A DNA stretch of 64,000 nucleotides. Origin: Nanobdellota archaeon (GTDB taxonomy: Archaea > Nanobdellota > Nanobdellia > Woesearchaeales > UBA11576). The position numbers and the translations under genes were made by a program. Shown piece after piece: positions 19,290 to 48,335 of the stretch. The stretch spans positions 3,438-67,437 of the forward strand of contig JBHPEY010000003.1 of assembly GCA_042576705.1 (NCBI GenBank), read 5' to 3'. Under the pieces are notes generated by a model. The model saw nothing but the letters and a program-made list of their open reading frames with translations. It was not told the DNA's origin and did not search any database. Numbering within the stretch: the first letter of the stretch is position 1; each line of letters starts with the position of its first letter.

Positions 19290-22230
19290 GCGCATAGGAA
19301 GTACATAAAGAACGGTTAGTACACGCGTGCTGAACACGTCGCCGAAGCTTCGTGCTTACACACCGTGCCTATCAAACGAGTCTTTTACTCGAGTTCAAGG
19401 TGTCTCTTTTTGCGGGGGGTTTCGTGCTTAGATGCTTTCAGCACTTATCCCTGAAGGCGTAGCTGCCCTGCGTACCTTGTCAGATAACAGGTAGACCAGA
19501 GGCCTCGAGCCCCCGTTCCTCTCGTACTAAGGGGTCCTTCCACTCAGACACCAAACATTTCCAGTAGATATCAAACAAACTGCCTCACAGCGTTCTGAAC
19601 CCAGCTCACGATCCCTTTTGATGGGTGAACACCCCCACCCTTGGATGCTTCTGCACATCCAGGATAGGAAGAGCCGACATCGATGTAGCAAGCCGCGCCG
19701 TCGATAAACTCCAAGCTTTCTTGTGAAAACCTGTATGAGCTCTCGGGCGCGACAACTCTGTTATCCCCGGAGTAACTTTTCGGTCATCTCTAGCTCCCAT
19801 CAAGGAAGCATAGAGGTTCGCTAGACCAAACTTTCGTTTTTGGATTCCTCATTGACCAGAATCCAATCAGGCTGGCTTTTGCTCTTGCACTCCACGGCGG
19901 ATTTCTGACCCGCCTGAGCCAACCTTAGGGCACCATTGATAAATTTTCAACGGTGTGCCACCCCAGCCAAACTGTCCACCTGCCGCTGTCCTTGTCTCCA
20001 AGTGAGCGACGTAAGTCTAGAAGAGTGGTGTTACATTTTTGTCTATTCATGATCTGGCGACCATAACATAACGACTCCCACTTACACTATACAACAAAAC
20101 TCACGTCGCAACAACAAGCTACAGTAAAGTTTCACGGGGTCTTCGCTTCCCACTGGAAATCACTGGCCTTTGCACCAGTAAAGAGTGTTCGGGGGATTCA
20201 GTCTTGGGACAGTGAGGATCTCGTTACGCCATTCATGCAGGCCGTCATTCAAACGGCAAGGCATTTCGCTACCTTAAGAGAGTTATAGTTACTCCCGCCG
20301 TTTACCAGCTCTTAGCTCCCTTGGAAGGAAGTTTGAAGTACTGGCACTGGGCAGACGTCACCTTCTGTACACACCTTTGCAGGCTAGCAGAAAGTTAAGT
20401 TTTTGTTAAACAGTCGGACCCTCTGAGTCACTGCGCCCTATGTTTGCAGTCATGCGACTACAAGCATAGGGACCCCTTATACCGAAGATACGGGGCGAAT
20501 TTGCCGAATTCCCTAAAACTGATTAATCCCTCACACCTTAGGCTTCTCACCTAGGGGCACCTGTGCTGGTTCTGGGTATGATTGCTAAAGTTCCATTCCT
20601 GTTCCTTTTTCATGGAGTCCAGGCATTGACTGAATGGACCAAAGGCCCACTATTCCCGAGTTTATTCAACTTCTCATCATTAAGATTCTCCATTGAATTG
20701 TCTTGGTTAACACAATAGATGACTTGTGTCAGTCTAGCCAGAACCGTCAGAAACAAGACTTGTGTTGCCACGTGTACTAAAGCAGTAAAGGAATCTTAAC
20801 CTTTTTCCCTTTCCCGTGTTGCCAGTTAGGCAGACGGTTAGGATCAACTTACCCTTGACTGAACTGCATTGTCAAGGAACCCTTGCCCTTTCGGTGGTAG
20901 TGATTCTCACACTACTATGATCCTACTCTCACCAGGATCCTCATTTCTACGAGGTTCACTCCCTCTCTCGAGAAAGCTTTTGCCCTCGCAGAGCGCCTAC
21001 CTACCACAATCCTTTCGGATGTCTGAAGTATCGGTAACCTGCTTAGCCCCGTCCATTTTCGGGGCCCACATTCTTGACAAGTAAGCTGTTACGCACTTAT
21101 TATAGGGTGGCTGCTTCTAAGCCAACCTCCTCGCTGTCTGTGAATGTAAACACCCTTCACCCGTTAACACTTAGCAGGTATTTTGGGACCTTAACTTCAG
21201 TCTGGGTTGTTCCCCTCTAGCTACTCACCCTTACGACGAGTACCCGTCTCCCGGAATCTACGACGTTGAAACATTCGGAGTTGGACAGGAAACCGAGGAA
21301 TTTCTTCCCCTAAATCCCCAATCCGTATCTCTACCTTTTCAACTATCTCATCCGAGGTTTGACTACGGCCAATTTTGGTAGGAACCAGCTATCACCGTGT
21401 TCGATTGGCTTTTCACCCCTAGCCCAAAGTTAGAAGACTACTTGCCCGTAAGTTCTCTGCAGGCCTCCACGGGATTTTACTCCCGCTTCACCTTACCCTG
21501 GGTTAGATCACACGGCTTCGGGTCTGGCCCAAGTGACTCAAGGCATTTTCATACCTAGTCCCTCATTGCTTGCGGACTTATTGATTTCTCTGCGGGTACC
21601 TCTTTACAAGTTACCCTTGCCACTTAGACAAACTCCCTGGCACGTTATTCAAAACGGACGTTACAACTCCGAAGAGCCGTAACCCACTATAGCTATTAGG
21701 TTTCAAGGTCTTTTAACTCCCTGTCAAGGGTTCTTTTCAACATTCCATCACTGTACTGTACGCTATCGGACTCAAGACGTGTTTAGGGTTGGAGGTTGAT
21801 GCCCCCCATATTCGTACCAAATATCCAATTGATACTACTCTGGAACTCACTAAACCTTTCTGGTTTTCCCTTACGGGACTATCACCCTTTATCGTGCTGC
21901 TTTCCAGCAGACTTCAAGTCAACCAGCGAAGGCGAAAAAGTGGTCCAAACACCACATCTCTTACATCTTTCAATGCAAGATTCAGTTTGCCCTATACGGT
22001 TTTCAGTCGCCCTTACTCACCGCATCCCAATTGGTTTCTTTTCCTGCAGGTACTAAGACGTTTCAATTCCCTGCGTTCCCTTACCTTTCGGCATTAAAGC
22101 GAAGTCGCATTAAGGCACCCCCGGTTCAAAGCATACATGCTGCTAGCCGGGGCATATCGTAGCTTGTCACGCCCTTCGTCGGCGTCTTGAGCCAAGTCAT
22201 CCACCTAATAGCTTAAATTGTACTTCCTAT
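19290..22230 (-). rRNA. rrl: 23S rRNA (ends approximate)
   Basis: Reverse complement contains the 5'-region GCCGACGAAGGGCGTGACAAGCTACGATA and the 3'-region GCTGAAAGCATCTAAGC. Length of about 2.9 kb. Confidence 0.85.
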
Positions 22231-22502: not shown

Positions 22503-22646
22503 TGGACCCGTCGGGACTTTCATGATAATGCCCCTTGAGTCACCATCTTTTCGAACCCGAGGCCCCCGCCTTGCAAGGGCGGTGCTCTTTTCCGCTCCGC
22601 GCAAACCTTCGTTCGCAGACGAAGTACCAGACTGAGCTACGGGCCC
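22503..22646 (-). tRNA. tRNA-Ala(UGC) with two non-canonical introns (D-loop and T-loop 59/60), in the 16S-23S spacer
   Basis: Exons assemble to GGGCCCGUAGCUCAGUCUGGUA|GAGCACCGCCCUUGCAAGGCGGGGGCCUCGGGUUCGAA|UCCCGACGGGUCCA. Contains the G3:U70 Ala identity pair, anticodon TGC and a perfect T-stem. Confidence 0.7.
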
Positions 22647-22761: not shown

Positions 22762-24340
<1,579 letters not shown>

Positions 24341-25132: not shown

Positions 25133-25166
25133 ATTTTTCTACAAAGAATTCCGGTATAAAAAACTA

Positions 25167-25241
25167 TGCTCCCGCCGGGATTTGAACCCGAGTCTTTGCC
25201 TCGAAAGGGCAAAATGATTGGCCGGACTACACCACGGGGGC
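25167..25241 (-). tRNA. tRNA-Glu(UUC)
   Basis: Cloverleaf with anticodon loop CUUUCGA and T-loop TTCAAAT. One C3:A70 mismatch in the acceptor stem. Confidence 0.75.
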
Positions 25242-25345
25242 ATTTTTTTGTCCGTGTGAATATGAAAGTTTGTCAAGAGTCAGCGACCACCACTCTATGA
25301 GATAATGGACAGCAACTCTTGACAAACTAAGTTGACCATAATAGG

Positions 25346-25513
25346 TGAGCCCGCCGGGACATTCATCAAAGCTGCTTTGCGGTTCTGATTTTGAACCCGG
25401 GACCACCGGTTTACTTAAGCTGTGCGAAGCGTTGCCATATAAGACCGGCGCTCCAATTACCCGCTTTTTACGCGAGATGAGCGCTATAAGCACCAGGCTA
25501 AGCTACGGGCTCG
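25346..25513 (-). tRNA. tRNA-Ile(UAU) with three introns (D-loop, canonical 37/38, T-loop 59/60)
   Basis: Exons GAGCCCGUAGCUUAGCCUGGU|GAGCGCCGGUCUUAUA|AACCGGUGGUCCCGGGUUCAAA|UCCCGGCGGGCUCA. All stems pair and the anticodon is TAT. Confidence 0.6.
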
Positions 25514-25559
25514 CAATATAGTCTTTTTAAGGAGAAATTTGGGGTATTTATAAAATTTT

Positions 25560-26471
25560 GTGTTTGTCGGGTGTCTGGTATCAATAATTTTAATAATGTG
25601 TGCCTACTCTTTTTTTGACATGTTGGGGGATTATAATAGACGGGAGTCGTTCTATCACGCAGCGCTGATAAACTCTAAAACGGTGCGTCCGGGCACTTTA
25701 GCGGGTGAAAAGGCACTCAGGGCAAAGCTCCAGGAGCATGGCAGCTTTGAGGAGATATATCTTTCTGAGTCCGGCGGCCTTCTTGTTGATGATGAGATCA
25801 GTAGGGACAAGAGTCTTGTCAGTCTTCTGAAGCGGATTGATAAGATCAGTTTTGACTTCAGGGTCCTGACTGTGAATGATGTTGATTTCCCGCAGCACCT
25901 TAAGGATGTTGAGGGTTCTACCCCTGTGTTGTACACCTGTGGGGATGTGGGTCTTATGGATGAGCAGTCCATCTCTGTTGTTGGTACACGGAAGCTTGAG
26001 GACAGGGTTGATATCGAGGAAGGGGCAGCGGTCGTCAAGCGGCTTGTCGCAAAAGGCTATGTTGTGGTCAGCGGACTCGCAGCAGGGTGTGATACACTCG
26101 GGCACACAAAAGCGATCGAGCATGGCGGGAAGACTATTGCTGTTTTGGGGACTCCTCTTGATAGGTTCTATCCTAAAGAGAACAAGATGCTGCAGGAAAG
26201 GATTGCTGCGGAACATCTTGTCGTATCGCAGTATCCCATCGGTGTAAGGACTTTCCCTTCTTACTTTGCGCACAGGAACCTGACTACGGTGTCTTTGTCT
26301 ACGGAAGGTGTTGTTGTGGTACGTTCAGGAGACAAGAGCGGGACACAGCACGCGATACGCCACTGCGTGGCGCAGGAAAAGCCGTTGTATGTCATGGCTA
26401 ATAACTTTGGCAAGGGCTATGCCTGGGTAAAGGAGAGGAGACAATATCTCAAGGTGCCGAATGGAAGATGA
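25560..26471 (+). CDS. DprA/Smf-like Rossmann-fold protein with N-terminal TM segment
   Basis: VVSGLAAGCDTLGHTKAIEHGGKTIAVLGTPLDRFYPKENKMLQERIA matches the DprA core (SGLARGID...GG.TIAVLGTGLD..YP.EN). Confidence 0.75.
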   Translation: MFVGCLVSIILIMCAYSFFDMLGDYNRRESFYHAALINSKTVRPGTLAGEKALRAKLQEHGSFEEIYLSESGGLLVDDEISRDKSLVSLLKRIDKISFDFRVLTVNDVDFPQHLKDVEGSTPVLYTCGDVGLMDEQSISVVGTRKLEDRVDIEEGAAVVKRLVAKGYVVVSGLAAGCDTLGHTKAIEHGGKTIAVLGTPLDRFYPKENKMLQERIAAEHLVVSQYPIGVRTFPSYFAHRNLTTVSLSTEGVVVVRSGDKSGTQHAIRHCVAQEKPLYVMANNFGKGYAWVKERRQYLKVPNGR

Positions 26472-31225: not shown

Positions 31226-31339
31226 GAATTAGACAACTGAAAAATCAGATGTTAATAAAGTTTATGATGGGAGACTGTGTCTCCCATACAAAGAAAACCT
31301 CGACTCGCAAGCTCATCGGGGTTTTCGAGCATGTGAAAA

Positions 31340-31379
31340 GGCATTTAGCCGACTTTGTCGGCGAAATGCCTTTCTCTCA
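31340..31379 (-). terminator. conserved 11-bp-stem hairpin immediately 3' of tRNA-Val; the same motif follows tRNA-Ala at 22466-22494
   Basis: atttagccgactttgtcggcgaaat versus atttagccgacttcgtcggcgaaat. Confidence 0.4.
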
Positions 31380-35537: not shown

Positions 35538-36524
35538 TTACCAGAATACCTCGATGTCATCTGTCCTTAGATACGGCTTGATATCTGCTTCTTCGATCTT
35601 CATCCTCTTTCCTGCGTTGTACTCAAGCAGGCCAAGCCATGCTATCATCAGGCCGTTGTCTACATTGACATCTGTGGGGAGAGAATAAGATATTGCGCCG
35701 CGTTCCTTGCACATGATGTCGCACATCTCCTGCAGTCTTTTTGAGGATGCAACGCCTCCGCCCAGGAGGAGCTCTTCTTTCCCGCAGTGCGCCATTGCGC
35801 GCTCGCTGACCTCGACAAGCATGGCGAATGCTGTCTCCTGGAGGGAGTATGCGAGGTCCTCTTTTGAGAATTGTTTTGAGTCGAATTTCTGTTTGAGGTT
35901 AGTGAGGAGTCCGCCGAAGGATACGTCCATGCCTTTGACTACGTATGGGAGTTCTATGAGTTGCTTTGCGTTCAAGGAGAGCTGGTATAGTTTTGGTCCT
36001 CCGGGAAATCCTAGGCCCATATGCCTTGCGAATGCATCGATGAAATTGCCTATTCCGCAGTCAAGGGTCTCTCCGAATATGCGGTACTTGCCACCGTCGT
36101 ATGCGATTATCTGGGTGTTGGCGCCGGATGCGTAGAGAAATACCGGATCCTTTGCATCGCTGAGGAGCTTTCCGATCTCCAGGTGTGCTATGCAGTGGTT
36201 GACTCCGATTATCGGTTTGTCGTAAGTGGCTGCTATGCTCCTTGCGAGCATCGCGCCGATCCTCAGGCAGTTTCCTATGCCTGGGCTCTGGGAGTAGGTG
36301 ACCAGGTCTATCTTGTCTAGTGTTGTTCCTGCTTTGGTGAGGGCTTTGGTGAGAACGTCCTTGAAGCAGTGTGCGTGATGTTCAGCGACCTCTGCTGGGA
36401 TCATGCCGCCTTCACCTTCTTTTGTGGTGAAGACCTCTCGCTCGTTTGCCAGGATATTGCCATCTGAGTCTATCAATCCTATGCCGAATGTGTGGGCTGT
36501 TGATTCGATTCCCAGGGATATCAT
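35538..36524 (-). CDS. kae1: tRNA N6-threonylcarbamoyladenosine synthase Kae1 (KEOPS catalytic subunit)
   Basis: MISLGIESTAHTFGIGLID...; ASKH-fold and metal-binding His motifs. Confidence 0.9.
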   Translation of the reverse strand: MISLGIESTAHTFGIGLIDSDGNILANEREVFTTKEGEGGMIPAEVAEHHAHCFKDVLTKALTKAGTTLDKIDLVTYSQSPGIGNCLRIGAMLARSIAATYDKPIIGVNHCIAHLEIGKLLSDAKDPVFLYASGANTQIIAYDGGKYRIFGETLDCGIGNFIDAFARHMGLGFPGGPKLYQLSLNAKQLIELPYVVKGMDVSFGGLLTNLKQKFDSKQFSKEDLAYSLQETAFAMLVEVSERAMAHCGKEELLLGGGVASSKRLQEMCDIMCKERGAISYSLPTDVNVDNGLMIAWLGLLEYNAGKRMKIEEADIKPYLRTDDIEVFW

Positions 36525-36691: not shown

Positions 36692-38638
36692 ATGGCATTT
36701 GAGTCTAAACCTATCACTTTCGAGGAATTCATCGATCAAGTTAAAGAGCACAATCCTAATGCTAATTTCAAGCTCATAGAGAAGGCATACAGGTTTGCTG
36801 AGCAGGCTCATAAAGGGCAGAAGAGGAGTTCTGGAGAGGCGTTCTTTGTGCACCCGCTTGAGGTAGGGCGCATACTAATCCATCTCAAGGCAGACAGTGC
36901 CACGATCTGCGCAGCACTATTGCACGACACAGTAGAGGATACAAGCACGTCAACAAAGACTGTGCGGGATGAGTTCGGCAAGGAGATAGCAGGCCTTGTA
37001 TCAGGCATGACCAAGATAACCGGCAAAAAATACGAATCAAAGGAGGATTACAAGGCAGAGAACCTGCGGAAGATACTGCTGGCAACTACCAAGGACATCA
37101 GGGTCATCCTCATCCGGCTCGCGGACAGGCTGCACAACATGAGGACGCTCGCGACATTCCGCTCAGACAAGCGGAAGAGGATAGCGCATGAGACCCTTGA
37201 GATATATGCGCCTATCGCGCACAAGCTTGGCATGTGGCGGCTGAAAGGTGAGCTGGAGGATCTGTCATTTAGGTATCTTGATTATGATACCTATGTCCGG
37301 CTTAAGGAGAGCATTGCAGAGAAACGGGTGCAGCGAGAGCAGGCCACTTCAAAGATAGTCAGCATGATCAGGGAGTCACTCCAGGAAAAGAACATAGAAT
37401 CGGATGTGTTCGGCAGGGCGAAATACTTCTACTCAATCTACAAGAAGATGAAGAAGAAGCAGAGGGACTTTGACCAGATATACGACCTGATCGCCATCAG
37501 GATAATAGTCAACACCATCCCTGAATGCTATAAATCACTCGAGATCATACACACGCTTTTCGAGCCGCAGCTGGAACGGTTCAAGGACTACATCCAGCAC
37601 TCTAAAGCGAACGGCTACCAGTCTATACACACTTCTGTAATATATGGACGGAAGATCATAGAGGTGCAGATCAGGACGCACGCGATGCACGCCATTGCAG
37701 AGGCAGGGATAGCGGCGCACTGGAAATACAAAGGAACAGAGAAGGACAAGGCATTCGACAGGAAGATCATGTGGCTCAAGCAGATACTTGAATGGCTGAA
37801 CAAGTCAAAGAATGCGCGGGATTTTGTGGAGACATTGAAGATAGACCTTTTCGAGAATGAGATCATCGTGCTGACTCCCAAGGGTGACCCGATATCGCTG
37901 CCAGAAGGGGCGACACCTGTCGACTTCGCATATGCTGTGCATACAGGCGTAGGCAACCACTGCTCCAAGGCAAAGGTCAATGACAGGATAGAGCCGTTGG
38001 ATCATCCGCTCAACAGCGGGGATGTCGTCGAGATAATGACAAGCAACAATGCGAAGCCTTCACGGGGATGGCTGAATTTCGCTGTCACTTCAAAGGCAAA
38101 GAGCAAGATCCGTTCATTCCTGGGTATAGAGTTTGATCACAAGCCGCGGGAAGCGGCTGCTTCTTCTGATTACGATAAGATAAAGCCGCACCTTGACAGG
38201 TTCATAAAGATACTCGGCAAGAAAGCGCCGCTCAAGCTGTCGAAGTGCTGCCAGCCAGGTTTCAATGACAGCATCATCGGGCTCAACACAAAAGACGGCA
38301 AGATAACCATCCACAAGAGTGACTGCATCAATGTACATAGTGTCGATGAATCTAAGCAGGTCAAGCTTGAGTGGGTGAAGCCTGAAGACAGCAATGTCCG
38401 TAAGCTTAAGGTCTATGTGACTGAGAGGCCGGGTGTGCTTGCGGATCTTCTTAACCTTATGGCTGTAGAGAAGGTATCTGTTAAATCTGTGAATACAAGG
38501 GTCCGGAAGAAGAAGATAATGCTTACGTTTAAGATAGAGGTGGATGAGGATGAAGAGCTTGAGCGAATTGTTGACAAGCTTAACGCGTTGCGGGACGTGA
38601 GTAATGTCAAGGTGGATGAGCAGGGGATAGGGGTTTGA
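36692..38638 (+). CDS. long RelA/SpoT homologue (HD hydrolase + (p)ppGpp synthetase + TGS + ACT domains)
   Basis: HD motif (HDTVEDT), synthetase motif (YQSIHTSV...EVQIRT), TGS domain (LTPKGDPISLPEGATPVDFAY) and C-terminal ACT. Confidence 0.85.
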   Translation: MAFESKPITFEEFIDQVKEHNPNANFKLIEKAYRFAEQAHKGQKRSSGEAFFVHPLEVGRILIHLKADSATICAALLHDTVEDTSTSTKTVRDEFGKEIAGLVSGMTKITGKKYESKEDYKAENLRKILLATTKDIRVILIRLADRLHNMRTLATFRSDKRKRIAHETLEIYAPIAHKLGMWRLKGELEDLSFRYLDYDTYVRLKESIAEKRVQREQATSKIVSMIRESLQEKNIESDVFGRAKYFYSIYKKMKKKQRDFDQIYDLIAIRIIVNTIPECYKSLEIIHTLFEPQLERFKDYIQHSKANGYQSIHTSVIYGRKIIEVQIRTHAMHAIAEAGIAAHWKYKGTEKDKAFDRKIMWLKQILEWLNKSKNARDFVETLKIDLFENEIIVLTPKGDPISLPEGATPVDFAYAVHTGVGNHCSKAKVNDRIEPLDHPLNSGDVVEIMTSNNAKPSRGWLNFAVTSKAKSKIRSFLGIEFDHKPREAAASSDYDKIKPHLDRFIKILGKKAPLKLSKCCQPGFNDSIIGLNTKDGKITIHKSDCINVHSVDESKQVKLEWVKPEDSNVRKLKVYVTERPGVLADLLNLMAVEKVSVKSVNTRVRKKKIMLTFKIEVDEDEELERIVDKLNALRDVSNVKVDEQGIGV

Positions 38639-43279: not shown

Positions 43280-43562
43280 GCGTTTTTTGTTAATTTTTTA
43301 TTCTTTAATTTTATATATGATGCTGACTTCTATACTTCTGGGAAGTATGTTGAGCTATGCTTCGAGGGCAGAATCCAGTTCTGACCCTGTTGTTTACTCT
43401 TAATCACTTCTCAGTGATTAAAACCGTAAATTTTATATATCTGAGGTCATTGTTTATGATAGTTTCAGGGAACAACAAGGGGAAGCAAAAGGGAGCGATT
43501 ATTGAGTCATACTGTTCTATGCAGTGACTGATGAGCTTGAAATAAGACCAATAGGTGGTAAG

Positions 43563-46500
43563 ATGTCTGAAGGAAATGATGATACAAAGGTTGTTTGGGA
43601 CCAGGAAGCTATCAAGAGATGGGCCTGGCGCGTGCGAGAGATGTGGGCACAGCATCTCGGATCTAAAAGACTTCCTGATTCTGCTCTACCTGAAGCAGTG
43701 CTGAAGCATGCTTCAAAGATTGATTCTAAGGCCCCTTCGTGGAAACATGTACGTGCGGCTTATGGAGGCATAGCCCCTCTGGTACAAGCTGTTGAGGAGA
43801 AATACAACCGATGGAATGAAGACGAATGCGCTGTCTGGGGCTGGACGCTCAGGGAGCAGCTTTCCCAGGAGAGGGTGGCGAGAGGTGAAGAGACTTGTTC
43901 ACTTACAATCACAGATATTGTCAATGGCCTGCGGCAGGATGAGGATGCGCCTCTTCCTGAGACACTTGCCAGAGTGTATGGTAGTGATGTGCAAAGCATG
44001 ATCGATACTGTCGAACAGTTCTATGGATTGTCAAAAGGACGTAGTGCAGCACAGGCTGAAGAGGATGCGTTTGAGACAAAAGCTACTGCTGCTTTCGAAA
44101 GGCTCGACGAGGACAGAGATACAGATGTACTTGCAGACTCTCCTCCGGAAGAGAAGACACAACCGCTTTCTATGATTGCAAGCGCTATACAGGATCCTGA
44201 CGAGAGATACCAGGCTGCCAAGAGTGTCTGGAGAAAAGGCGGCAAGGTCATCGGTTCGGAACAGGAATTGGCCGAGCTTGAGATACATGATTCACTGCAG
44301 ACACCTGCAGAGGCGCATGATGAGAAAGTCGTCACTCTTGTAAATGATTTCATCTACTTACGGCAGCAGAGGGATGGGCCGCTCACTGAAGAGGATATTG
44401 AAACACACCTCGGTTCACTCAATGCATTCAATGCAGTATTCCACAGTCTCAACCGTGCTGAAGATGCTTACCAGATGGGTCAGAGGCACAGGGAACAGGT
44501 CACTGAAAGGAAGAGGATAATGGGGAGGGTACAGCTAGAAGAGCGAGAAGTACCGTCGGAACAGCCGAAACGGTTGAGAAAGATAAAGAACACACTGCAG
44601 GGAATGACTTCAGAGTATTCCTTTACATCCAGAGATCAGATACAGCATATACAGCAGGACTCGGCTGAAGGAGCAAAGGGGACCACGCTTGAGGGTGTGG
44701 GGCCGGAGCAGCAGTCAGAGTCACATCCAATACTTATGGGGATTGAACCTGAGCAAGCTCTTGCAAGACCAGAGCCTGGTGAGCTTGATGGTATTCCACA
44801 GACAGTCGTAGGCATGGGTCACGGAGAGCTGCGTGATATTCCAAAGACAACCCCTGGCTTTGGTGCAGAAAGCATAGAGGACGCGAATGACCTCAGAGTA
44901 TCAGGCGGGCCTAATCATGATGATGGGGCCTACAACACAAATCTCGCAAGTGCGCGGTCGATGAAGACTGCGGAGGATGTACGTGGGATCGCAAGGGAAC
45001 TTGGCTATACAGATGTTGAGGTCGGTGGTGAAGGCCCTGATGAATCTGAAGAGCATGAGGCCATAACGCACCCTGGCGGGAAGTTGCCAGGACTGGTGTC
45101 CGACGACGCTACAGAGGAACCTGCAGATGAAGATTATGAGTATACACCGGTCACCCTTCCGCAGGATGACCAGCCTGTCTTTGGCCAGTTTCAGGATGCA
45201 TTCCAGAAGCTGAGCGAAAAGGATCAGGAGGCTATCCTGGATGCTGCTTTGCAGAATGGCAAGGGTCATGCAGATGAGCCTACATTGGAAGACCAGATGC
45301 ATGAAGGGGATAATACAGAAGACATCACGGTCAAGAGACAGTATACTGCAGGTACATCTGAACCGGAATCTGTCGAACCTACAGGTCGTGTTGGTTCGGA
45401 AAGTGATGATACTGAGTTTGATGCCAACCCTGACACAAATGTGCCTTTTGAGCCGAGGCATGTACAGTCTTTTTTACAGCACTCTATCGATCAGATGAAG
45501 GAACACGCAGAACAAGGAGAGGGTCCCGAAGCGCAGGATGCATCACTTGATGCCCCGCAGAGTATGGGTACTGAAGTGGTTGGTGAGGAGCCTGTCACTG
45601 AACAGAGCGTGAACCGCAGGTTTGATCTCTCTGCGACTGGCCATACAGAAGAAGTTCCTTTTGACCAGCTTGCCCAGGCGAAACAGGGATATGCAGGCGA
45701 TATACCTGAGAGTGAGCTTGCAACAAAGAGTGATGTCATCTCTTCTGATCCTAGCGGTCCAACAGAGACCTCAGGCACCATCAACATATCAAAGCAATCC
45801 GCTGACCCTGGTGACAAGTCCATAGAGGCTAAGGTCGCGCAGGAACCCGCTGCAGAGAATGGCGGTGAGAGGGAGCGGAGCCCTACGCCCATGTCCGGGC
45901 AGGTATATGATCCTATGAAGCCTTCAGACACTGTGAAGCGGGCCATGCAGAGACAGATAGATGAGCTCAACAAGAGAGAGGCACAGGGGAAGACTGTCAA
46001 GAAAGAGAAGAAGTCCTGGAGCAGAAGCAAGAAGATGGTGGCAGCAGTCGCTGCTGGTGTCGGCGTCTTTGCTTTAGGCGGTGCAATCCTTTACTCTTCC
46101 TTCACGACACCTGACAAGGATATCTCCAACATGGTGGCTGCAAGCAATCAGTATGGAGTTATCGCTTCATTTGATGCTGGAACAAGAAGCATCGATGCTG
46201 CTGTTGACGCAATCGGTGCGGTTGCATATTCTAGTGATGCTGGAGAGGGAATGCAGACACCTGCAGTCGCTACAGCGTCTGCGGAAGAACCTGAGCCTAA
46301 GGTCGATAAGGCCGAGCCTAAAATACCGGGCATGCATCCGGAGAGGGCATGTAATCTCAGGCTTCAGATGGGATTTGATGATGTAAAGTATTCGAGTGCA
46401 AGTGCTGAGCAAGACCTTGAGGATTATGTCAGTTCCATGCTCAAGTCGGGCAAGAGGAAATTCAAGGTTTTTGGCACGGCAAGCATCGAGGATGCGAATG

Positions 46501-48335
46501 ACCTCAAGGTGTCAGGCGGGCCCCATCATGATGATGGAGACTACAACACCAAGCTCGCAGAGCAGCGGGCGATGAAGACTGTGGAGGACATACGCAGTAT
46601 CGCAAGGAACCTCGGCTATACAGACGTTGAGGTCGATGGTGAAGGCTGGTCAGAGAAGGATCTCTGGGCAAAGGGCAAAGATCCGCGAAGCCTTGCGCAG
46701 AACAGGGGTGTGTTTGTATCGACTGACTGGGTGCTGGATCCTGACCTTGAGGAAACTATCAGGGATGTGGTCGAGGACTATTCGTTCGGCGAGATGAACG
46801 GTGAGAGCTGTCCAGACGGAACAGGTGACGGCAGCAAAGGAAGCATGAACCAGCAGGATAATGCGCCTGATGATAATTTCATGCCTGATATTGATGATTC
46901 AGATGATGATTCATCTGACGGGACAGAGGCATATGCAGACAATTCAGATTCAATAGACCACCTTACAGGGATACAGAGGACTGTGGTGCATGACCGCATG
47001 GGCAAGTACCTCGATGGGGCAATCACCTGGTTTGAGCTGCGTGAAGATGTCGCGGAGTATGGAGTCCCGTATATTACAGGCGAAGAGGCATTGCAGGTCC
47101 ATGAGCTGCTCTCTGACGGAGTGGAAGCTACAGATAAGGTTGATTATGCTGTGCTCTCTTCGGGTTTCGTTGAGGGTGCCTGGTCAGATGAGGTGCTGAT
47201 GACCGAGGTTGCACCTGGCTATGCTTCAGAGAGGTTGGTCGGTAAGATACTGGAACAGGTGGAGAATCAGCAGTGTTCAAACGATACTGATGATGATGTC
47301 CTGTTCACACTCGACAAGTACGAGCAGCTGAAGACAGATAAAGCTCTCGCAGAAGCTGATGCTGATGATCCTGATGAGGAGATACCCAGCCTTCTGTATG
47401 AGGTCTCTGATGATACTGTGCTGTCTGCAGGGTTTGTTGATAATTCCCAGTCGGATCAAGAGGAAGCGATAATCGCTGAACTTCTGCCGGCCTATGCTGC
47501 AGATAAGTGCGTTGAAAACCTGAGGGCAGAGGCTGACAGCCAGCAGTCTTCAGATGCTGGTGATTCCGGCAAGGGGTCCGGCCTTTTGTATGTGGTTTCG
47601 GATGATACTGTGTTGTCTTCAGGGTTTATTGAGGATGCTCCGTCGGATGAAGAGTTGGTTGATGAGGTCCTGCCAGGGTATGCGCTACATAGGCGTGTTG
47701 AGAACAGAAGGCAGGATGAGAACCGCCGGGCTTCGGAAGTCATTGAGGATCTTACCAAAGACTTTGATGAGGCTAACCCTGATGCTTGTGCGACCCGGTC
47801 AGCGCTTTCCCTGCTCCAGTCCGAAGACACAGAACCAGATGATTACAATGTCGAGGGTAATGGCGATCCAGAGTATGACTCTGCCAAGGTAGCTGCTGAG
47901 GTCAAGGAAATGCAGAAGCAAGAGAAGGAAAGGGCACAGGATGTACTCGCCGATATCTTGTCAGATGTTGATAGAGAGTGTGCCAAGAGCGAGGCAGAGC
48001 GTGATTATATACCTCAGTATGGTGTTTTTGAGATAGATGCTCTCGGTGAGCTGCACTATGACTATGCAGAGTTCGAGGATGTCGACAGGATGGCAAGGAT
48101 CCATGGCATAGATAACTTCGGCAAGACAGTCCCCAAGCATGATTTCGCAAGATGGGCTACGATAGTTGAGCTCAGCAAGATGGATGATTGCGAGTGCGAT
48201 GAAGTGGGTGGGGCACTCTATGGGCTGAAAGAGATTGCGCAGAACCAGGATGTTGTTGCGCTTGAGAGGCCTGAGTCCAAGCCTAATCCTGAGCCAGAAG
48301 GCGCAGCACTTGAAGATTATCTCATGGCTGCATAA
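43563..48335 (+). CDS. giant acidic repeat protein (about 1,590 aa) with a single central TM helix
   Basis: Longest ORF in the window. One TM (MVAAVAAGVGVFALGGAILYSSF) near residue 840. Internal repeats on both sides of it (SIEDANDL[RK]VSGGP[NH]HDDG.YNT.LA...YTDVEV.GEG; three copies of TVLS[AS]GF[VI][ED]...). No recognisable catalytic domain. Confidence 0.6.
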   Translation: MSEGNDDTKVVWDQEAIKRWAWRVREMWAQHLGSKRLPDSALPEAVLKHASKIDSKAPSWKHVRAAYGGIAPLVQAVEEKYNRWNEDECAVWGWTLREQLSQERVARGEETCSLTITDIVNGLRQDEDAPLPETLARVYGSDVQSMIDTVEQFYGLSKGRSAAQAEEDAFETKATAAFERLDEDRDTDVLADSPPEEKTQPLSMIASAIQDPDERYQAAKSVWRKGGKVIGSEQELAELEIHDSLQTPAEAHDEKVVTLVNDFIYLRQQRDGPLTEEDIETHLGSLNAFNAVFHSLNRAEDAYQMGQRHREQVTERKRIMGRVQLEEREVPSEQPKRLRKIKNTLQGMTSEYSFTSRDQIQHIQQDSAEGAKGTTLEGVGPEQQSESHPILMGIEPEQALARPEPGELDGIPQTVVGMGHGELRDIPKTTPGFGAESIEDANDLRVSGGPNHDDGAYNTNLASARSMKTAEDVRGIARELGYTDVEVGGEGPDESEEHEAITHPGGKLPGLVSDDATEEPADEDYEYTPVTLPQDDQPVFGQFQDAFQKLSEKDQEAILDAALQNGKGHADEPTLEDQMHEGDNTEDITVKRQYTAGTSEPESVEPTGRVGSESDDTEFDANPDTNVPFEPRHVQSFLQHSIDQMKEHAEQGEGPEAQDASLDAPQSMGTEVVGEEPVTEQSVNRRFDLSATGHTEEVPFDQLAQAKQGYAGDIPESELATKSDVISSDPSGPTETSGTINISKQSADPGDKSIEAKVAQEPAAENGGERERSPTPMSGQVYDPMKPSDTVKRAMQRQIDELNKREAQGKTVKKEKKSWSRSKKMVAAVAAGVGVFALGGAILYSSFTTPDKDISNMVAASNQYGVIASFDAGTRSIDAAVDAIGAVAYSSDAGEGMQTPAVATASAEEPEPKVDKAEPKIPGMHPERACNLRLQMGFDDVKYSSASAEQDLEDYVSSMLKSGKRKFKVFGTASIEDANDLKVSGGPHHDDGDYNTKLAEQRAMKTVEDIRSIARNLGYTDVEVDGEGWSEKDLWAKGKDPRSLAQNRGVFVSTDWVLDPDLEETIRDVVEDYSFGEMNGESCPDGTGDGSKGSMNQQDNAPDDNFMPDIDDSDDDSSDGTEAYADNSDSIDHLTGIQRTVVHDRMGKYLDGAITWFELREDVAEYGVPYITGEEALQVHELLSDGVEATDKVDYAVLSSGFVEGAWSDEVLMTEVAPGYASERLVGKILEQVENQQCSNDTDDDVLFTLDKYEQLKTDKALAEADADDPDEEIPSLLYEVSDDTVLSAGFVDNSQSDQEEAIIAELLPAYAADKCVENLRAEADSQQSSDAGDSGKGSGLLYVVSDDTVLSSGFIEDAPSDEELVDEVLPGYALHRRVENRRQDENRRASEVIEDLTKDFDEANPDACATRSALSLLQSEDTEPDDYNVEGNGDPEYDSAKVAAEVKEMQKQEKERAQDVLADILSDVDRECAKSEAERDYIPQYGVFEIDALGELHYDYAEFEDVDRMARIHGIDNFGKTVPKHDFARWATIVELSKMDDCECDEVGGALYGLKEIAQNQDVVALERPESKPNPEPEGAALEDYLMAA

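Follow-up and report, generated by a model that had tools for sequence, protein, structure and literature searches.

A tRNA-Ile gene with a genomic UAU anticodon and three bulge-helix-bulge introns in a DPANN archaeon

In the 64-kb stretch of contig JBHPEY010000003.1 analysed here (the window), a 167-nt region of the minus strand (25512..25346) encodes a precursor tRNA-Ile(UAU) composed of four exons and three introns, each intron being bounded by a bulge-helix-bulge (BHB) motif. The region is very probably a functional gene for the AUA-decoding tRNA-Ile, with a genomically encoded UAU anticodon, in a DPANN archaeon that is mesophilic and belongs to the Woesearchaeota/Nanoarchaeota type. Gene anatomy, BHB motifs, their covariation and their conservation are observed directly in the window and its homologues. 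An earlier sequence-only reading had already recognized a tRNA-Ile with genomic UAU and introns in the D-loop, at position 37/38 and at position 59/60; the BHB motifs and the ARAGORN call of tRNA-Ile(tat) on the spliced product bear this out.

Anatomy of the pre-tRNA

Exon 1 (25493..25512, 20 nt, GAGCCCGUAGCUUAGCCUGG) supplies the 5′ strand of the acceptor stem, U8 and A9, the 5′ strand of the D-stem, and the D-loop through G19, where it is interrupted by intron 1 (25457..25492, 36 nt) at D-loop position 19/20. Exon 2 (25438..25456, 19 nt, UUGGAGCGCCGGUCUUAUA) contributes the end of the D-loop, the 3′ strand of the D-stem, G26, the 5′ strand of the anticodon stem, and the loop residues C32, U33, U34, A35, U36, and A37. 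It is separated by the 26-nt intron 2 (25412..25437), which occupies the canonical site 37/38, from exon 3 (25390..25411, 22 nt, AACCGGUGGUCCCGGGUUCAAA), which comprises A38, the 3′ strand of the anticodon stem, the variable loop, the 5′ strand of the T-stem, and T-loop positions 54-59. Intron 3 (25360..25389, 30 nt) follows at T-loop position 59/60, and exon 4 (25346..25359, 14 nt, UCCCGGCGGGCUCA) completes the tRNA with U60, the 3′ strands of the T-stem and the acceptor stem, and the discriminator A73. All seven segments lie on the minus strand.

Once the introns are excised at the BHB cut sites, the exons form a canonical cloverleaf with stems of 7/4/5/5 bp and discriminator A73, and ARAGORN classifies this 75-nt product as tRNA-Ile(tat). 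Genomic TAT occupies positions 34-36 and is flanked by U33 and A37. CCA is not encoded at the 3′ end, where the following bases are CCU. In the raw window, the gene is detected neither by ARAGORN nor, even at E ≤ 1, by Rfam. As all four exons follow one another on a single strand inside 167 nt, the gene is neither split nor permuted, and introns of 26-36 nt without an Rfam match do not qualify as group I or group II self-splicing elements.

The sequence-only reading had placed the gene correctly but assigned it 168 nt (25346-25513); base 25513 lies one nucleotide upstream of tRNA G1, and the true range is 25512..25346. Its four exon strings are present in order at 25512-25492, 25453-25438, 25411-25390, and 25359-25346, and their concatenation is likewise called tRNA-Ile(tat) by ARAGORN. 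Its lengths for the 37/38 and 59/60 introns (26 and 30 nt) hold, whereas the D-loop intron has to be shortened from 38 to 36 nt and the mature tRNA lengthened from 73 to 75 nt.

BHB motifs at the three intron junctions

Every position pair (p/q) of the precursor was scanned for a BHB defined by a 4-bp central helix and two 3-nt bulges, with the cut after the second bulge nucleotide. All three junction pairs, with the D-loop boundaries corrected as above, display this 3-4-3 geometry, so that the junction check suggested along with the sequence-only reading turned out positive throughout. At intron 2 (p = 75/q = 101), C32-A35 (CUUA) pairs with UAAG between the bulges UA|U and UA|A, supported by an outer helix of 7 bp and an inner helix of 3 bp (GGC/GCU), which together form a strict hBHBh′ motif. 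Because this strict BHB at 37/38 fixes the splice points, the anticodon is UAU. Intron 3 (p = 123/q = 153) is also bounded by a strict hBHBh′ motif; its central helix joins U54-A57 (UUCA) to UGAA between the bulges AA|A and UG|U, flanked by the T-stem as the outer helix and by an inner helix of 5 bp. At intron 1 (p = 20/q = 56), G15-U18 (GCCU) pairs with GGGU between the bulges GG|U and AA|U, followed by a 4-bp inner helix (GCUU/AAGC); the outer helix of this motif is weak and consists of 3 bp (A14-U, U13.G, and U12.G).

Boundaries of the D-loop intron

The D-loop junction reads ..AGCCUGG|...AA|UUGGAGC, and exon 2 begins with UUGGAGC. Intron 1 is therefore 36 nt long, which results in the D-loop AGCCUGGUUG and a mature tRNA of 75 nt. 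Nine further genes carry an intron at the same D-loop site (L002, L171, L005, L022, L114, L038, L060, L073, and L105). In the trimmed alignment of these 10 genes, standard pairing is seen in 88.9% of the cells of the proposed helices, compared with 33-43% when the partners are shifted by 1-3 columns, and the observed pairing values were reached by at most 2 of 500 shuffles. Five pairs of the D-loop BHB have changed on both sides, for instance from C16-G to U16-A. Moreover, AGCCUGGUUG occurs as an uninterrupted D-loop in four homologues free of a D-loop intron, including L009. Under the canonical cut rule, L038 and L073 yield AGCCUGGUUA, the commonest D-loop among homologues without this intron, and L105 yields AGCCUGGUA, a classical form ending in A21.

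Other registers were considered and rejected. The register p = 21/q = 55 (CCUG/CGGG) yields a 12-nt D-loop that is absent from all homologues, and L105 and L005 fix the central helix at positions 15-18. Registers that would yield AGCCUGGUG (20/57, 21/58, and 22/59) form no BHB.

Conservation in related loci

Syntenic loci were found via contigs encoding relatives of the neighbouring DprA protein. The locus L001 (GCA_964563755.1) shares the DprA-HAD...ScpA-LonB neighbourhood and contains the orthologous tRNA-Ile(UAU) gene, which is interrupted by the 37/38 intron only and lacks the D- and T-loop introns. In contrast, L002 and the partial locus L005, both beside the same DprA gene, display the three-intron architecture of the window. 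A complete three-intron copy is also present on a metagenome contig (L171), the one true homologue among 103 loci retrieved by a metagenome scan with a 17-mer of the D-loop intron. In L003 and L004 (P0006), DprA and the HAD hydrolase are shared, yet protein genes rather than a tRNA gene lie upstream.

Comparison of the window gene with its L002 counterpart shows two exon differences in 75 positions, which form one compensatory pair of the anticodon stem (C28-G42 to U28-A42), and exon 1 is identical in the window, L002, and L171. The introns of the same two genes differ at 23 of 92 positions, with the interior of the T-loop intron essentially replaced. Exons and BHBs are kept while intron interiors diverge, as would be expected for a functional spliced gene rather than for a pseudogene. 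A TATA-like box (TTTTATAAATA, 25545..25555, minus strand) that ends approximately 33 nt upstream of the first tRNA nucleotide represents a putative promoter, its function being inferred; TTTATAAA is found 27-35 nt upstream of G1 in L001, L002, L005, and L171 as well.

Distribution among archaea

A scan for the anticodon-arm string GAGCGCNGGTCTTATA, with each species represented by a single genome, returned at least 119 loci, from which at least 69 archaeal tRNA-Ile(UAU) genes, mostly DPANN-labelled, could be fully parsed. By record label, the matches listed comprise 26 genes from Woesearchaeota, eight from Nanoarchaeota/Nanoarchaeia/Nanobdellati, seven from Micrarchaeota, three from Pacearchaeota, two from Aenigmarchaeota, and one from Nanohalarchaeota, in addition to 11 from 'uncultured Methanosarcinales', eight from archaea without further name, one from Promethearchaeota, and two labelled as bacteria. 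This distribution suggests a wide spread of genomic UAU anticodons across the sampled DPANN genomes. The sequence-only reading had named Nanoarchaeum and Korarchaeum as the few lineages concerned; these stand, but the list was incomplete, given the ARMAN gene reported in 2011 (PMC3239211) and the genes parsed here. The spread also contrasts with recent reviews according to which prokaryotes have lost UAU (PMC8007984, PMC6000648).

Together with the window, L001, and L002, the 69 genes among the matches listed form the analysed set of 72. The 37/38 intron is found in 71 of them, with a length of 17-70 nt (median 36); the exception, L029, has the uninterrupted anticodon loop CUUAUAA. It is the sole intron in 49 genes, is accompanied by a 59/60 intron in 13 and by a D-loop insert in three, and occurs together with both in six (window, L002, L077, L089, L105, and L114). 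The central helix of the 37/38 BHB forms three or four of its four pairs in all 71 intron-bearing homologues, and all four in 51. T-loop insertions are located at 59/60 in all 19 genes that carry one (the window and 18 others), with all four central pairs in 13 of 19 (UUCA with UGAA or UGGA; UUCG/CGAA in L114) and three of four in the remaining six. BHB pairing is thus upheld by compensatory change among homologues, both in the D-loop covariation and in the T-loop of L114. The discriminator A73 is present in all 72 genes. Judged from these comparisons, the D- and T-loop introns turn over quickly between close relatives, and the 37/38 intron is almost never lost.

Several of the matches are remarkable for their labels. 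L060 (CP070655.1, 1080001-1088000) belongs to a 1.14-Mb chromosome labelled 'Candidatus Omnitrophota bacterium bin81' and contains an archaeal-type tRNA-Ile(UAU) with D-loop and 37/38 BHB introns; the taxonomic assignment is probably an error. The record of L026, 'bacterium isolate CTOTU29499', presents a similar case. Among the matches listed, the 11 'uncultured Methanosarcinales' loci carry a tRNA-Ile(UAU) gene seen otherwise mainly in DPANN. L045 (JBGLND010000001.1), a 3.7-Mb scaffold with a Promethearchaeota/Asgard label, encodes a tRNA-Ile(UAU) interrupted at 37/38 by an intron of 41 nt; provided the label is correct, genomic UAU is not confined to DPANN and Korarchaeota. Three Streptomyces records (L006, a plasmid, L103, and L115) hold bacterial genes that resemble tRNA-Ile(UAU), are free of introns, and share its anticodon arm, GAGCGCCGGTCTTATAAGCCG.

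Points against a functional spliced gene and alternative readings

Several observations weigh against reading the locus as a functional three-intron gene. With all three BHBs enforced, the precursor folds at -50.5 kcal/mol, compared with -63.4 kcal/mol for the unconstrained minimum. The strict D-arm BHB (-11.3 kcal/mol) is exceeded in stability by intron-exon 2 pairing (-18.2 kcal/mol) and also by a form that keeps the mature D-stem and places the 3′ site in a larger loop (-13.3 kcal/mol). The D-arm BHB is thermodynamically marginal, and the set consists of two strict motifs and one that is effectively relaxed. Further, L052 and L001, which among homologues lacking D- and T-loop introns are the closest, have the 9-nt D-loop AGCCUGGUG and not the predicted 10-nt form; both lengths are found among homologues, and the spliced tRNA of the window matches that of L052 at 71 of 75 positions. 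Finally, TiaS, EndA, and RtcB gave no Pfam match among approximately 60 scanned open reading frames (ORFs) of the window. On the other side of the balance, the same intron style recurs elsewhere in the genome, namely in a tRNA-Ala(UGC) with D-loop and 59/60 introns.

The D-loop boundaries of the sequence-only reading, with a 38-nt intron, the D-loop AGCCUGGU, and a 73-nt tRNA, are very unlikely to be correct. The 73-nt concatenation does fold and is called tRNA-Ile(tat) by ARAGORN, but its junctions (GGU|G...UUG|GAGC) form no BHB in the geometry scan, and the 8-nt AGCCUGGU is found in none of the 62 homologues without a D-loop intron. Moreover, the canonical cuts in L038, L073, and L105 give D-loops that end in A21, and a cut one base later would not. 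Decay into a pseudogene, in which three insertions had disrupted a former tRNA-Ile that now goes unprocessed, is highly improbable, even if standard tools miss the gene and the BHB fold is not the minimum-free-energy fold. The exons are strongly constrained, both of their differences being compensatory, set against 25% divergence in the introns, and sequence changes have left the BHB pairing intact. The conserved promoter, the leading place of AUA among the isoleucine codons of the window, and the presence of the same architecture in at least four further species-level genomes speak against decay as well.

The inserts might also be treated unequally, so that the 37/38 intron alone is removed and the D- and T-loop inserts are kept as expansion segments. 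This has no direct support beyond the weakness of the D-arm BHB, and we regard it as extremely improbable: segments between G19 and U20 and inside the T-loop would break the D-loop/T-loop contact that is conserved in established tRNA structure, both inserts hold a precise BHB geometry across divergent sequences, and close relatives without the inserts are otherwise unchanged. A different anticodon is the least credible alternative, with a chance close to nil. On paper, CUUAUAU...CUUAAGUAA permits several 7-nt loops, and other splice points would produce, for instance, UGU or AGU (threonine) and leave no AUA decoder. In the precursor scan, however, these alternative loops have no BHB; the sole 3-4-3 BHB is the strict UA|U...UA|A with its 7-bp outer and 3-bp inner helices, 71 homologues have their intron at 37/38 with 3-4 central pairs each, and the loop CUUAUAA of L029 is uninterrupted.

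Proposed processing pathway and AUA decoding

The functional AUA-decoding gene would be transcribed from the TATA-box promoter about 35 nt upstream. The 167-nt precursor is predicted to fold into three independent BHBs, one per arm; in each, a stretch of four loop nucleotides (15-18, 32-35, or 54-57) would be paired to the intron's 3′ end. EndA would cut after the second nucleotide of each 3-nt bulge, in six cuts altogether, and an RtcB-type ligase would join the four exons to the 75-nt tRNA, which RNase P, 3′ trimming, and CCA addition would complete. Presumably charged with isoleucine and possibly modified at U34, the mature tRNA would read AUA and, by precedent, replace the system of tRNA-Ile2(CAU) and TiaS, which depends on agmatidine. 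AUA accounts for 337 of 690 isoleucine codons (49%; 34 per 1000 codons) in 22 confident genes of the window and is the most used isoleucine codon, hence an efficient AUA decoder is required. A tRNA-Ile2(CAU) was not found within the 64-kb window. By analogy with ARMAN, Nanoarchaeum, and Korarchaeum, which provide the precedent for UAU without TiaS (PMC3239211, PMC8450103, PMC6000648), absence of tiaS from the genome is a reasonable prediction. A literature search on TiaS or agmatidine together with DPANN returned nothing relevant.

In the 72 genes analysed, the 37/38 intron pairs with C32-A35 throughout, while the D- and T-loop introns come and go. Eukaryotic tRNA-Ile(UAU) also has a genomic UAU and an intron beside the anticodon that pairs with the anticodon in the precursor; this single intron is cut out by the Sen complex, and pseudouridines at positions 34 and 36 depend on it. 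We know of no archaeal equivalent of such intron-dependent pseudouridylation. Conceivably, a modification of U34 (or U36) that keeps UAU from decoding AUG depends on the anticodon-intron helix of the precursor, which we consider unlikely. Such a modification would be the archaeal counterpart of the eukaryotic one, a doubtful parallel that retention of the 37/38 intron would allow without demonstrating it. Alternatively, the 37/38 intron is simply inherited and neutral.

Comparison with known systems

Among the closest known systems is that of ARMAN, for which a tRNA-Ile(UAU) with a 37/38 intron was reported in 2011 and cleaved in vitro, in genomes without TiaS and tRNA-Ile(CAU) (PMC3239211). 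Like the window gene, that of ARMAN-2 (Candidatus Micrarchaeum; Fujishima et al, 2011) is from DPANN and combines a genomic UAU with a strict hBHBh′ 37/38 intron, which is 25 nt long compared with 26 nt here, and a 59/60 intron occurs in another tRNA of ARMAN-2 (PMC3239211). In contrast, the ARMAN-2 tRNA-Ile is interrupted by one intron, and those at D-loop 19/20 and T-loop 59/60 are additional in the window gene. Nanoarchaeum equitans and Korarchaeum cryptofilum likewise use genomic UAU for AUA decoding instead of tRNA-Ile2(CAU), and the Korarchaeum tRNA-Ile(UAU) is also intron-bearing but described with a single intron (PMC6000648, PMC8450103). The former is a hyperthermophilic symbiont and the latter a korarchaeon, lineages unlike the host of the window. 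The tRNA genes of Thermoproteales resemble the window gene in having up to three BHB introns, including non-canonical sites in the D- and T-arms, and in calling for iterative detection (cited in PMC8450103 and PMC5829648); they belong to thermophilic Crenarchaeota with an (alpha-beta)2 EndA, whereas the window host, judged from rRNA G+C, is a mesophilic DPANN archaeon.

The sequence-only reading had further held that an epsilon2 or alpha2beta2 EndA is required, a view that is outdated and not forced by the gene, two of its three motifs being strict. The motif set fits a broad-specificity endonuclease without proving one. Kaneta et al (2018), whose genome set includes one Woesearchaeota and one Pacearchaeota genome, described, for DPANN lineages, an alpha4 EndA bearing an L3 loop alongside a larger number of disrupted tRNA genes, and intron-rich tRNA sets of Woesearchaeota and Pacearchaeota were noted in the same year (PMC5829648). 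Broad specificity is no longer confined in the literature to the epsilon2 and (alpha-beta)2 types (PMC5829648). While ARMAN-2 has an epsilon2 EndA, published work points to the alpha4 type with an L3 loop in Woesearchaeota and Pacearchaeota (PMC5829648).

Each component, namely UAU with a 37/38 intron, the 59/60 and D-loop introns, and three-intron genes, is already known, and the window gene combines them. It changes no concept and is an ordinary example of features known in the DPANN group. What is added are the corrected boundaries, the spread of UAU across the sampled DPANN genomes, and the fast turnover of D- and T-loop introns; gain and loss at 19/20 and 59/60 between close relatives offers material for studies of intron turnover and endonuclease specificity. 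As standard finders miss both this tRNA-Ile and the two-intron tRNA-Ala, the genome would wrongly seem to be without its only AUA decoder.

Genomic neighbourhood and host

The window is archaeal, with 16S rRNA at 22764-24340 and 23S rRNA at 19296-22228, both on the minus strand. The rRNA G+C of approximately 0.47-0.49 differs little from the average of the genome, as would suit a mesophilic host. The DprA gene (25560-26471, plus strand), the divergent neighbour of tRNA-Ile, encodes a protein that is 100% identical to MFC1741136.1 ('Nanoarchaeota archaeon'); its next relatives share approximately 60% identity, and named matches further down are Woesearchaeota and Pacearchaeota. These matches agree with the DPANN/Nanoarchaeota-like lineage that the sequence-only reading had hinted at. 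Outside DPANN, the relatives of DprA are Vibrio and enterobacterial proteins with approximately 50% identity, and the gene looks bacterial. A Kae1/TsaD homologue was identified at 35538-36524 by the Pfam scan.

The second disrupted tRNA gene, tRNA-Ala(UGC) (22503-22646, minus strand, 144 nt), is located in the 16S-23S spacer and is undetected by ARAGORN and Rfam. Its two BHB introns are both non-canonical: a 37-nt intron (22625..22589) interrupts the D-loop at 20/21, and a 33-nt intron (22549..22517) the T-loop at 59/60. After splicing, a product of 74 nt remains that is called tRNA-Ala(tgc) and contains the G3.U70 pair.

On the other side of tRNA-Ile, 103 nt downstream, lies an intron-free tRNA-Glu(UUC) (25166..25242, minus strand), identified by both ARAGORN and Rfam. 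It is a conserved partner, as ARAGORN found tRNA-Glu(ttc) 26 times in tRNA-Ile(UAU) loci; run with introns allowed on the homologous loci, this program gave unreliable calls, such as 'tRNA-Ser(tga)', which serve as rough background only. The tRNA-Glu(UUC) counterparts in L001 (~1300-1465) and L002 (~70-330), both on minus strands, look interrupted by several inserts, and in L001 the 3′ end is duplicated (cggcgggagca twice). Since tRNA-Glu is intron-free in the window and apparently interrupted in L001 and L002, intron content varies gene by gene among close relatives.

The spacer between tRNA-Ile and tRNA-Glu (25243-25345, minus strand) contains a perfect 14-bp hairpin formed by AGUUUGUCAAGAGU and ACUCUUGACAAACU, with stems at approximately 25328-25315 and 25281-25268, a minimum free energy of -32.6 kcal/mol, and z = -5.1. 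Rfam gave no match for it at E ≤ 1. L002 and L171 have a hairpin in the same place with unrelated stem sequences, and an element of the form 'TGAGAGAAAGG-stem-CCTTTTCACATG' that resembles the spacer hairpin follows the tRNA-Val of the window (~31300-31378) and the tRNA-Ile of L171. The hairpin may be a terminator, a processing signal, or something else.

Elsewhere in the window, a 1603-aa ORF (43524-48335, plus strand) has no Pfam match at E ≤ 1e-5. The 16S rRNA match spans 1577 nt compared with a model of 1478 positions, corresponding to insertions of approximately 100 nt. Two further genes look bacterial, one of the '23S rRNA-intervening sequence protein' family (PF05635; 16445-16864, minus strand) and one encoding a full-length RelA/SpoT homologue with HD, RelA_SpoT, TGS, and ACT domains (36692-38638, plus strand).

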